The notes under the pieces are model-generated. The model was given only the letters and a program-made list of their open reading frames with translations, searched no databases and was not told the origin of the DNA. Below, in pieces: positions 17,101 to 22,992 of a stretch of DNA of 64,000 bases. A program made the translations under genes and the position numbers. Positions within the stretch are counted from its first letter, which is position 1; each line of letters starts with the position of its first letter. This DNA comes from Escherichia phage vB_EcoM_ESCO56, in the sequence record OM386665.1; one strand, written 5' to 3'.

Positions 17101-17662
17101 TGGTGTGATAGCTATGGAAAAAGATAACTTAAAAGAAGTTGAAGGTAACTACCTAGTCCTTGACTGGAGTGATATTCGAGAAGCATTATCCAAAGAAAGC
17201 CTTGACATACTGGAGCAGCTTGTCTTTTCAGTACGACATATCAGAGAAGTTGAAAATGGTAAAGAGCCACTTGAAGGAATCTTTGTAGAGAAGTCTTATC
17301 CGTTCTATGAAGACACTTTGCAGAAAGTTAAAATGTACTTTAAACAGAAGAACCGTAAAGTGGTCACTATGGTATCTCTTGGTGGACAGAGTATGTCTGT
17401 GATGGAAGATATCAATCCTAAGAGACCGAGCAAAGGTGTCTGTATAAAAATCACAGGGCATGAAGAGTATATCTCAATTGATGATTTTAGTGCACTCTGT
17501 AATGGTTCTGCTGTCTTTAATGGGTTTCACTATGATATCCGAGTGTATCCAATCAAGGGGGATGCTGTTATGATGCAGATATTCGATATCAATGGTGGAT
17601 TTACTCATTTTTATCAGACAACCAAGTCATCATTGAAGACAGTTTTAGAAAGTCTGATTTAA
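17057..17662 (+). CDS. hypothetical protein
   Basis: 201 aa ORF; start uncertain (alternative ATG at 17114). Confidence 0.5.
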   Translation: MTTSLQYQTSKFYDNGVIAMEKDNLKEVEGNYLVLDWSDIREALSKESLDILEQLVFSVRHIREVENGKEPLEGIFVEKSYPFYEDTLQKVKMYFKQKNRKVVTMVSLGGQSMSVMEDINPKRPSKGVCIKITGHEEYISIDDFSALCNGSAVFNGFHYDIRVYPIKGDAVMMQIFDINGGFTHFYQTTKSSLKTVLESLI

Positions 17663-17674
17663 AATATCTTAAGA

Positions 17675-17700
17675 GCCTCCTTAATTGGGGGCTTTTTATT
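17675..17700 (+). terminator. intrinsic terminator ending the plus-strand operon
   Basis: GCCTCC-TTAATT-GGGGGC hairpin followed by TTTTTATT. Confidence 0.7.
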
Positions 17701-17890
17701 GAGTAAAATTTACGAAATTTATATTTTTTATAAAATTTATCGGTTGTACCAACCTCTGGGTCACCATCATATGTGAATAAAATATCTATCCTTCTTAACA
17801 ACCTTCTTAATCTTACTCTCTATATAGTTATATAGTATTATATAGTATCTTAGTAACTATCTAGTGGTCTTAATAGCCCATCTGTATAAC

Positions 17891-17962
17891 CCTTCTAACA
17901 AGCCTTCTAACAAGCCTTCTAACAAGCCCTCTAACAAGCCCTCTAACAAGCCTTCTTAACAG
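17891..17962. repeat. tandem 12-bp repeat, six units (CCTTCTAACAAG and variants)
   Basis: Direct inspection: ccttctaacaag x3, ccctctaacaag x2, ccttcttaacag x1. Confidence 0.9.
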
Positions 17963-18318
17963 CCTATACAATCACCTTAACCATCCCTCTACACCCTCTT
18001 AGAAGCTCCTATACACCTCTTAATCTCTAGGTAAGCTATGACACTCTCTATAGGTGTTCACTAGGCACTACTAAGCCTCTATATAGACTGTTTTAACAAA
18101 CTTAACAGGAATATCTTTACAGACCTTATCTCACAAGGTCTAACACGGTACTAACAAGGTATCTTATAAGCCTGTTTCTACCTGTATTTTAGAAAGACTG
18201 TATAGGTAATTATTCAGAATTTTAATTTTTTTATAAAATAAGACTGTCAAGCCATTTTTTAGGGTCTTTGAAGGAACTGAAAAATATCTGTAGAGGATGT
18301 ATATCTGTTTGGTAGCCC

Positions 18319-18594
18319 TTAACAGCTCTGTAACATCCCCTTTGCAAAATTTTAAAATATCATTAACAATCTCTTAACAACTCTCTCAAGTTCTTAACAT
18401 CTCTTCAGAGGTCTTAACAGTTTCTTAACAGTTTTAACAAGAGGGTAACAATTTCTTAACAGTTGATACATAGGCTTTACAGAATCTTAACAGATGATTA
18501 ACAAGAGCTAACAAGTTAATTTTTAAGGGTTATTTTGTTAAGATAATTAACAAGTTCCTAACAAGTATTTAATCTTTTTAACAAACTATTAACA
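18319..18594. repeat. array of at least 16 (C/T)TAACA(A/G) sites, mostly spaced 11 or 20 bp (helically phased)
   Basis: Site starts at about 18319, 18330, 18363, 18374, 18394, 18414, 18425, 18434, 18445, 18456, 18487, 18498, 18508, 18547, 18558, 18578, 18589. Confidence 0.85.
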
Positions 18595-18660
18595 TGGTCA
18601 CTACTCTTTTCTTATCGTTCCCTTTCCTTTCTTAGTGATACCTTAAAAATGCCTTTTAAA

Positions 18661-18682
18661 AGCTCTCTATAGCTCTCTATAG
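18661..18682. repeat. tandem 10-bp repeat AGCTCTCTAT x2 plus partial
   Basis: agctctctat agctctctat agactc. Confidence 0.8.
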
Positions 18683-18796
18683 ACTCTTTTTAGTCTCTCC
18701 CTAGTATTTACCCCTCAACTGTATGAATAGCCCTTTATAGGGCTTTACAGGGCTTTTAAGGCTATGCCAAAGGCTTTTACAAGGCTTTTACGTGGT

Positions 18797-18895
18797 CTTA
18801 ACAGAGATTTAACAAGGGGCTAACAAGTTGTTAACAAGTGTCTTAAAAGTATAACTATGTAGGATTTGTTAAGAAATTGTTAAGAAAATGTTAAG
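18797..18895. repeat. convergent set of TTAACA sites (four direct, then three inverted as TGTTAAG)
   Basis: cttaacag, tttaacaag, gctaacaag, gttaacaag, then ttgttaag, ttgttaag, atgttaag at 10-12 bp spacing. Confidence 0.8.
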
Positions 18896-18910
18896 GGGGC
18901 TAGCATTTAC

Positions 18911-18940
18911 GTAACTTTTGAGTAACTTTTGAGTAACTTT
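18911..18940. repeat. tandem 11-bp repeat GTAACTTTTGA x2.7
   Basis: gtaacttttga gtaacttttga gtaacttt. Confidence 0.8.
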
Positions 18941-19114
18941 ATAGCCCCTATAACATACTTTTTAGTGACTATCAAGCCCTTTTTAGTAGTTCACGAGATA
19001 CTAATCAGCCTATAAGCTTATACCCTTAAAAGATTCTTTTAAGGCTCTGTAAAGCCTTATAAAGGGCTTTTTAAGGTTAGTTAATGCAATCCCTTAAGTT
19101 ATATTGATAATGCT

Positions 19115-19134
19115 GTTATAGAGCGTTATAGAGC
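19115..19134. repeat. tandem 10-bp repeat GTTATAGAGC x2
   Basis: gttatagagc gttatagagc. Confidence 0.8.
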
Positions 19135-19312
19135 GTTTAAAGGTTTGCCCTTCCCTCTCGGGCTATGGGCTTGTATTTAAGTTGATTTGATAAAAGGCTA
19201 TAGGGTAGACTATAGAGTTATTGCTTTTTAAGGTATGAGATAAACTCTATCGAATCAGTGGGGAGATTCTAGAAAGGTGAGGAAAGGGATTGCATAAGGA
19301 TTTGATAGACGT

Positions 19313-19335
19313 AAAAAAGCCCCCATTTAAGGGGC
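19313..19335 (-). terminator. intrinsic terminator for the minus-strand early region
   Basis: Minus strand: GCCCC-TTAAATG-GGGGC hairpin followed by TTTTTT (plus-strand A-run 19313-19318). Confidence 0.65.
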
Positions 19336-19379
19336 TTTATAAAGGTATCTGGGGCTATTTAGCCCCGTTGATTGACAAT

Positions 19380-19910
19380 TTACAGATTTTTGATTGTATC
19401 ATCGATATCTTTTTCAATATCTTTTAAAGTTTTTTCTAAATTCTTGATATTGAAAGATAAGCCCTCTCCCAATGTCTTAGTGTAACCTTCAGGACGTGAG
19501 TTATATAGTTCAATTTCTTCCACTTCAAAGAGACTCACCGCCTCACCGTTTACATTGTAAGCCATTGAAACAGTATTTACAGGGGCTTTATAAAACTTGT
19601 TCAATGACTTGATTGAACGCTCATAAGTCATTTTATAACTGTTTAACAGGTTTTTAACGTGATTGTAAATGTTTTTACACTCATCTAAGTAAATCTCTAA
19701 GAATAACGGTAATAATTTTGCGACAGCTTGCATGAAATGAGAGACTACAACGGTTGCAACATTACGACGATGGACATAATAAGCCCCTTTTCCTGATTTA
19801 GTGATAGTTGCAAAATGTACACCATTGCAGCGAAATTCATATGTATCTTTGACAGGTTTAGACATTACAGCGCTTGAACGAATGAAGTTGATAGCTTGAA
19901 ATTTGTTCAT
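19380..19910 (-). CDS. hypothetical protein
   Basis: 176 aa ORF; GGAGA RBS; preceded by a family-1 promoter/leader cassette. Confidence 0.6.
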   Translation of the reverse strand: MNKFQAINFIRSSAVMSKPVKDTYEFRCNGVHFATITKSGKGAYYVHRRNVATVVVSHFMQAVAKLLPLFLEIYLDECKNIYNHVKNLLNSYKMTYERSIKSLNKFYKAPVNTVSMAYNVNGEAVSLFEVEEIELYNSRPEGYTKTLGEGLSFNIKNLEKTLKDIEKDIDDTIKNL

Positions 19911-22663: not shown

Positions 22664-22992
22664 CTGTTTTGTTTTCGTTTGCTCATTTCTTGAGCAATTA
22701 CAGCGTAGTAGTCTTTTAAGTTACTGATATTTAAAGCATTTAGTAGAGAGTTATAATCATCAACTAACTGGAAATCCTCTTTAAGGATGTCACTTATCTG
22801 ATAGGTTTCCGCTTTAAATCTAAAGCTCATCTCTAGCCGTTTTATTTGCTCATCGCTTAAACGCTCTAAAAAGCTCTCTACGAGGCTATTGCTAACCTGT
22901 TGTGTGATAGCCTTATCTGCTAAATTATAGGCGCTGTAAGCCTTATAAAGCGCTATAATGGCGATGATTGCAGTGATTCCCATCATTAACAT
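22660..22992 (-). CDS. hypothetical membrane protein
   Basis: 110 aa; N-terminal transmembrane helix MLMMGITAIIAIIALYKAY. Confidence 0.55.
   Translation of the reverse strand: MLMMGITAIIAIIALYKAYSAYNLADKAITQQVSNSLVESFLERLSDEQIKRLEMSFRFKAETYQISDILKEDFQLVDDYNSLLNALNISNLKDYYAVIAQEMSKRKQNS

Follow-up and report, generated by a model that had tools for sequence, protein, structure and literature searches.

Short tandem repeats in and beside the direct terminal repeat homolog of a Felix O1-like phage as candidate elements of a packaging and end-processing region

Introduction

In bacteriophage T7, arrays of short repeats reportedly flank the terminal repeat, and an inverted repeat by the junction is said to form a hairpin intermediate. 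The T7 type of genome end is a short direct terminal repeat (DTR) of a few hundred base pairs, which is present once per concatemer junction and is duplicated during packaging (PMC10438801). Lambda, which makes cohesive ends, and SPP1, which packages by the headful from pac, carry different short repeats at helical spacing on either side of the cut: the R-sites of cosB, with IHF, in the former and pacL and pacR in the latter. These elements bind the small terminase and bend DNA. Clustered, helix-phased direct repeats near an AT-rich tract are also a feature of iteron origins such as lambda ori and plasmid oriV, in which classical iterons measure 17-22 bp, while VNTR or contingency loci change by whole units between closest relatives.

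Felix O1-like phages are widely used for the typing of Salmonella and E. coli, in biocontrol and in therapy. No small terminase has been recognised in Felix O1 (PMC3185647). The DTRs of felixounaviruses have already been published, as lengths only: 613 bp for Ro111lw, determined by PhageTerm and classed as T7-like by its authors (PMC6454146), and 581 bp for Pr103Blw (PMC8303462). Their location and fine structure are not described in the literature that we searched.

The locus described here shares with the T7 type a DTR that stands as a single copy at a junction, in keeping with the T7-like classification of the Ro111lw repeat. It differs from T7 in that it belongs to a myovirus that relies on the RNA polymerase of its host and in which no small terminase is recognised; in that its DTR measures 590 bp, as against 160 bp; in that this DTR is packed with TTAACA units phased at 11 bp, with both DTR and flank varying in 11-bp steps; and in that a unique inverted motif marks the DTR ends, with no T7 sequences shared. 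By analogy, its short repeats on either side of a cut resemble those of lambda cosB and of SPP1 pacL and pacR, whereas its ends, by homology, are exact and carry a DTR, and there is no sequence similarity. We regard this DTR as a well-resolved new example of a known element type, the T7 type.

Results

A gene-free region between convergent genes

The window (the whole 64-kb stretch of DNA analysed here) comes from a Felix O1-like myovirus of the genus Felixounavirus. The 1.8 kb around the repeats matches 255 phage records at 86-93% identity, nearly all of them Felixounavirus with Escherichia, Salmonella, Shigella and Citrobacter as hosts; the closest record is ESCO45. On the basis of the open reading frame (ORF) list, annotated relatives and conservation, the surroundings of the repeats were delimited as follows.

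17663-19379, no strand: ORF-free region of 1.7 kb between the homologs of Felix O1 ORF24 and ORF22/23

The counterpart in Felix O1 is the gap between ORF24 and ORF23. No ORF of at least 40 amino acids is present in 17663-19379, the only two ORFs inside 18600-19200 are TTG-start frames of 22 and 28 amino acids, and no plausible ORF overlaps the three repeats. Genes to the left lie on the plus strand and genes to the right on the minus strand, so that transcription converges on the region. Annotated relatives show only 'repeat_region' or terminator features in this gap, and the genome papers on Felix O1 and wV8, the Bas63 paper on PhageMaP and the Danish wastewater paper contain no description of it. 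The eight flanking ORFs match no Pfam family and only PHROGs of unknown function, and an Rfam scan of 17400-19600 at a permissive threshold gave only two matches at chance level (E = 0.36 and 0.47), both outside the repeats.

Short tandem repeats are concentrated in the gene-free region

The first-pass annotation had listed three tandem duplications in this region, and all three were recovered by Tandem Repeats Finder with the same coordinates, units and copy numbers.

18661-18690, plus strand: repeat 1, a 10-bp array of two AGCTCTCTAT units and a degenerate third unit, inside the DTR homolog
18905-18948, plus strand: repeat 2 array, four 11-bp units, ATTTACGTAAC, TTTTGAGTAAC, TTTTGAGTAAC and TTTATAGCCCC, with the exact part at 18911-18940
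19115-19137, minus strand: repeat 3, 2.3 copies of GTTATAGAGC

The program reported repeat 1 as 18661-18698 with period 10 and unit AGCTCTCTAT (exact part 18661-18682, 2.2 copies), repeat 2 as 18911-18940 with period 11 and unit GTAACTTTTGA (2.7 copies, 100%), and repeat 3 as 19115-19137 with period 10 and unit GTTATAGAGC (2.3 copies, 100%). Exact tandem duplications of 8-14-nt units number 14 in the window, and 10 of these fall within 17663-19379, which makes up 2.7% of its length; second-order Markov simulations of the region averaged 0.11 and never exceeded 2, which places the repeats far outside chance expectation. Single motifs are likewise overrepresented. The hexamer TTAACA occurs 20 times in the region against 1.9 expected, and five of the seven CTCT(N0-2)TATAG matches in the window lie there (0.2 expected), all on the plus strand. 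As for the several CTATAG palindromes noted earlier between 18661 and 19134, only two are found in that interval (18667 and 18677), both within repeat 1; with those at 18048, 19198 and 19210 the region holds five, against 0.5 expected.

The strongest tandem repeat of the window is a different one, a 12-bp array of CCTTCTAACAAG (6.2 copies) at 17891-17965. Its alignment gap fractions are 0.46-0.84, so its copy number varies, and many relatives have fewer copies than the window. This array lies within about 590 bp to the left of the DTR homolog (17723-18310) that have a homozygosity of 0.95-0.99 in 29 relatives, the level of first and second codon positions in the neighbouring genes, and that contain neither an ORF nor an Rfam match.

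The repeats lie in and beside the homolog of a direct terminal repeat

A search with 18600-19200 returned several GenBank records that start or stop inside the query, and some that hold the sequence twice; several further records begin or end near window position 18900. Both ends of four such records were compared with the window. Three of them, Ro111lw, ECP2307 and ZX4221, carry 100%-identical repeats at the two record ends (613, 592 and 591 bp, respectively), and all three repeats map to 18311-18900. Their chromosomes begin with GGTAGCCCTTAACA... and finish with ...TGTTAAGGGGGC, sequences that are identical in the window at 18311 and 18900.

18311-18900, no strand: DTR homolog of 590 bp, single copy in the window, as in a concatemer junction
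18866-18895, minus strand: three reversed TTAACA units (TGTTAAG), spaced 11-12 bp and abutting the right DTR end

The same sequence thus stands at both virion DNA ends in three relatives, and the ends are fixed, sequence-defined and conserved in the three records and the window. This comparison of record ends shows 18311-18900 to be the single-copy junction form of the terminal repeat that close relatives carry in duplicate at the ends of their virion DNA; by homology, the chromosome ends of the window's own phage would lie at 18311 and 18900. Of the three repeats, only repeat 1 falls within the DTR, 218-240 nt short of its right end; beyond that end, the repeat 2 array starts after 4 nt and repeat 3 (19115) after 215 nt. 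Short repeats therefore flank the right cut at helical spacing, with three TGTTAAG units inside and four 11-bp units outside, as they do in cosB and in pacL and pacR.

Among the relatives (loci L001-L040) the DTR ranges from 567 to 658 bp, mostly in 11-bp steps (569, 580, 591, 602, 613, 624 and so on), so the number of internal TTAACA units changes too. The metagenomic contig IMGVR_UViG_3300045988_004931 (L012) ends inside the terminal repeat, near window position 18890, which is consistent with assemblies breaking at a repeat-rich genome end.

A unique motif marks the boundaries

Both ends of the DTR homolog carry the motif TAGCCC(C)T(A)TAACA, which has three matches in the 64 kb on both strands. 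It was defined by the expression TAGCCC+T[AT]?[AT]AACA because the length of the C-run differs between the copies.

18313-18324, plus strand: M1, TAGCCCTTAACA, at the left DTR end, with the cut 2 nt upstream; homozygosity 0.98 within 15 nt either side of the boundary
18889-18902, minus strand: M2, TAGCCCCCTTAACA, spanning the right DTR end, with the cut at 18900|18901; homozygosity 0.96 within 15 nt either side of the boundary
18942-18955, plus strand: M3, TAGCCCCTATAACA, the inverted partner of M2, just past repeat 2

M1 and M2 are mutually inverted at the two DTR ends, and M2 and M3 form a second inverted pair that brackets repeat 2. The position of the cut relative to the motif differs by 2-4 nt between the two ends, and the right end falls in the palindrome GCTAGC. 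M2 and M3 pair with each other in the MFE and centroid folds of 18826-18975; when the two boundaries and the inverted arms described below are folded as single-stranded DNA, the z-scores run from -0.7 to -1.9 and are not significant.

Repeats 1 and 3 belong with two inverted sites around the right cut

Repeat 1 occurs in all of the approximately 30 relatives aligned as a degenerate 10-bp array (AGCTCTCTAT / AGCTCYTTRTA / AGCTCTTTTAAG), and perfect copies, two or three of them, are found only in the window and in relative L011. Repeat 3 is present in the same relatives as GCTGTTATAGRGCKTTATAGAGCG, and its length and copy number never vary. The description of the units as unrelated does not fully hold for this pair: among the non-self matches of repeat 1 across the whole window on both strands (128 kb), the reverse complement of repeat 3 ranks highest, with agreement at 17 of 23 positions, a value that barely exceeds the best chance matches of 16. 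When the search is reversed, repeat 1 ties for second among the non-self matches of repeat 3. A further strong match of repeat 3, at 22860-22882, falls within an ORF, and we attribute it to chance. The next-best matches in these searches are two further sites within the same 500 bp.

18729-18751, plus strand: I1L, AGCCCTTTATAGGGCTTTACAGG, of the repeat 1 family
19046-19068, minus strand: I1R, an inverted copy of I1L

I1L and I1R form the best inverted high-scoring pair of the region (22 nt, 95%), centred at 18898.5, that is, at the right DTR end. The start of I1L follows that of the repeat 1 probe at a fixed distance of 71 bp (81 bp in L011, with its extra repeat 1 unit), and the start of I1R precedes that of the repeat 3 probe by a fixed 65 bp; these spacings hold in almost every relative in which both sites were found. 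Repeats 1 and 3 themselves lie at -228 and +226 from the cut in the window. Overall dyad symmetry around the cut is weak, with an arm identity of 0.38 against a regional mean of 0.335, about 2 sd.

A T-run follows I1R, as would be expected if the region held transcription signals, either terminators of the two convergent operons, promoters or small-RNA genes, with elements of a GC stem and T-run such as GCCCTTTATAGGGCTTT and AGCCTTATAAAGGGCTTTTT acting as hairpin terminators. The region does lie between convergent gene blocks, relatives have annotated terminators at both of its edges, and we count four terminator-like sites against 1.4 expected. These matches, however, are placed at the edges (17677, 17742, 19159 and 19320) and none coincides with the three repeats; sigma-70 promoter-like matches are not enriched (10 against 7.1 ± 2.7), no Rfam match has an E-value below 0.3, and the hairpin z-scores are weak. 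Terminators would also leave 1.7 kb of phased repeats unexplained. We consider it very unlikely that transcription signals account for the repeats.

The repeat 2 array changes in whole units

The distance from the right cut to the conserved CCCCTATAACAT is 48, 59, 70 or 158 nt among the relatives, which equals 4 + 11n with n = 4, 5, 6 or 14 repeat 2 units. The window has four units and its closest relative, ESCO45, has five; the TTTTGAGTAAC unit is amplified only in the small lineage that the window shares with ESCO45 and ESCO49. For the array lengths we obtained a Rayleigh R of 0.98 at period 11, a descriptive value only, as the genomes are related. The distance from I1L to the cut also changes in 11-bp steps, while the steps between the cut and I1R are about 11-12 bp and less tightly quantised. 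An alignment of repeat 2 with the mirror image of the reversed TTAACA units inside the cut scored 20 (null 14 ± 2.8, p about 0.04); the direct orientation came close to this, at 18, and the comparison carries no weight in our reading.

In its whole-unit change between closest relatives, repeat 2 resembles VNTR or contingency loci; repeat 1 shows such a change in L011, where it has three copies, and repeat 3 never does. Unlike those loci, the repeat 2 array lies in no gene or promoter, and the copy number of repeats 1 and 3 hardly changes at all.

Shifts of this kind would also arise if the repeats were functionless by-products of slippage or unequal recombination in AT-rich non-coding DNA, where a recombinogenic terminal repeat tolerates tandem copies. 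Copy number does move in unit steps, and the perfect repeat 2 copies are restricted to the lineage of the window, ESCO45 and ESCO49. Indels of 11 bp are in any case expected from slippage in an 11-bp array and are no proof of selection on helical phase. Judging from their distribution, only the perfect GTAACTTTTGA copies common to these three phages look like a recent, lineage-specific product of slippage.

Regional periodicity and conservation

Fourier analysis of the region revealed a single dominant period, of 10.4-11.2 bp. Within the interval that holds the three repeats, power reaches 15 times the median at 10.9-11.3 bp, and in coding controls it stays below seven times (about 6.5 times) at any period. 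With their periods of 10, 11 and 10 bp, the three repeats form local maxima of this regional 10-11-bp periodicity. They are therefore not the independent events that had been supposed: repeats 1 and 3 match each other in inverted orientation, and all three are peaks of one periodicity.

Homozygosity across the relatives was as follows.

Whole region: 0.89
DTR boundaries: 0.96-0.98
Repeat 3: 0.945
Repeat 1: 0.88
Repeat 2: 0.86
Flanking genes, third codon positions: 0.72-0.88
Flanking genes, first and second codon positions: 0.86-0.98

All three repeats are conserved in position in the approximately 30 relatives, across the genus and sister genera (including Moogle and SUSP2), with repeats 1 and 3 present in Felixounavirus, Mooglevirus and Suspvirus, a distribution that marks these two as ancient. 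The values for repeats 1 and 2 lie only modestly above those of third codon positions, a point in favour of functionless copies. Against such an origin stand the same positions of repeats 1 and 3 in all three genera with their constant 71- and 65-bp spacings, the high homozygosity of repeat 3 with no change in copy number, and the retention of 1.4-1.7 kb of gene-free DNA in a genome that is 90.6% coding, even in Kolesnikvirus. That the repeats are by-products of this kind seems to us improbable.

The Kolesnikvirus in question is Erwinia phage Roscha1, in which the flanking protein is only about 33% identical and a 1.4-kb gene-free region contains 16 TTAACA sites. Both boundary contexts are conserved there, and the point at which the record was opened differs from the homologous right end by no more than 1 nt. 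From the ends of this record (ON706965.2, L042/L043), a DTR of about 437 bp is predicted; the dimeric repeats outside it are different ones, CTTAGAAG, with a spacing of 11-12 bp. These differing sequences suggest co-evolution between the flanking sites and a phage factor.

The same properties might be sought in a replication origin, with the TTAACA arrays and the flanking 10-11-bp repeats serving as initiator-bound iterons, the three repeats as accessory initiator or host-factor sites, and the very AT-rich tract taattattcagaattttaatttttttataaaataag at 18206-18240 as the unwinding element. Dense direct repeats at helical spacing, with the excess of TTAACA given above, the position of the AT-rich tract, about 70 bp to the left of the DTR, strong conservation of the region and the same design in a distant genus all favour this proposal. 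However, no recognisable initiator gene adjoins the region among the eight flanking ORFs searched against Pfam and PHROGs, the units of 10-12 bp are shorter than classical iterons, and changes in GC skew merely track gene orientation. The DNA is, moreover, demonstrably a chromosome end, and forming genome ends is its sole experimentally anchored function. We regard an origin as possible but unlikely; it would be compatible with a role in packaging. The AT-rich tract might, apart from this, be an unwinding or bending element.

Discussion

The repeats are most likely elements of a signal for cutting and packaging, and not random debris of slippage. More specifically, we think it fairly probable that they are parts of a cis-acting end region, in which they would form candidate phased protein-binding or DNA-bending arrays for packaging and end processing; this function is one that we infer from their position relative to the chromosome end, their conservation, their variation by whole units and their helical phasing. 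The first-pass annotation had proposed replication slippage or several binding-site types concentrated in one control region. Both readings are reasonable, since positions are conserved and copy number varies (4, 5, 6 or 14 units in repeat 2, three copies of repeat 1 in L011), and the control region turns out to be a genome-copy junction, made up of the DTR homolog and its right flank.

The arrangement of the sites suggests how such a signal might work. While DNA is packaged, the phased candidate sites would be bound on one face of the helix, either by the terminase or by an accessory protein that binds or bends DNA. The binding would direct sequence-specific cutting to two places, 18310|18311 and 18900|18901, after which strand-displacement synthesis would duplicate the terminal repeat in the manner of the T7 type. 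Repeats 1 and 3, together with I1L and I1R, would provide two inverted pairs of dimeric sites at about ±157 and ±227 bp from the right cut, and repeat 2 would serve as a spacer of variable length, or as a binding array, between the inverted M2 and M3. Slippage in replication or recombination could add or remove whole 11-bp units of repeat 2 while preserving rotational phase.

A bolder and rather doubtful proposal is that Felix O1-like phages, in which no small terminase is recognisable, define their chromosome ends by an architecture that has not been described before. Inverted TAGCCC(C)TTAACA motifs at the DTR ends, set in helix-phased TTAACA arrays, would recruit the packaging machinery, and M2 and M3, with repeat 2 as loop or spacer, would form a hairpin or bending element that primes duplication of the DTR. 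Were this so, whole-turn indels of 11 bp would be tolerated because only rotational phase matters.

Placement of the DTR supplies candidates for the packaging signal: the cut sites at both ends, the unique motif inverted at these boundaries, and the phased arrays, of which natural variants exist that differ in length by 11 bp. It also offers an explanation for assemblies that break or are opened in this region, and indicates the proper start point for GenBank records; differences in copy number within the end region are to be expected as strain markers and should not be taken for assembly errors.

Two minor observations concern the surroundings of the repeats. Between repeat 3 and the ORF22 homolog, most relatives have one or two small genes of 249 and 264 nt (Felix O1 ORF23 and its neighbour) that are missing from the window at 19140-19379, as they are from ESCO45 and Mushroom. 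Finally, record GU169904.1 (147 kb), which is named Staphylococcus phage SA1, contains Felix O1-like sequence and encodes a flanking protein with 86% identity, a sign that the assembly may be mixed or chimeric.
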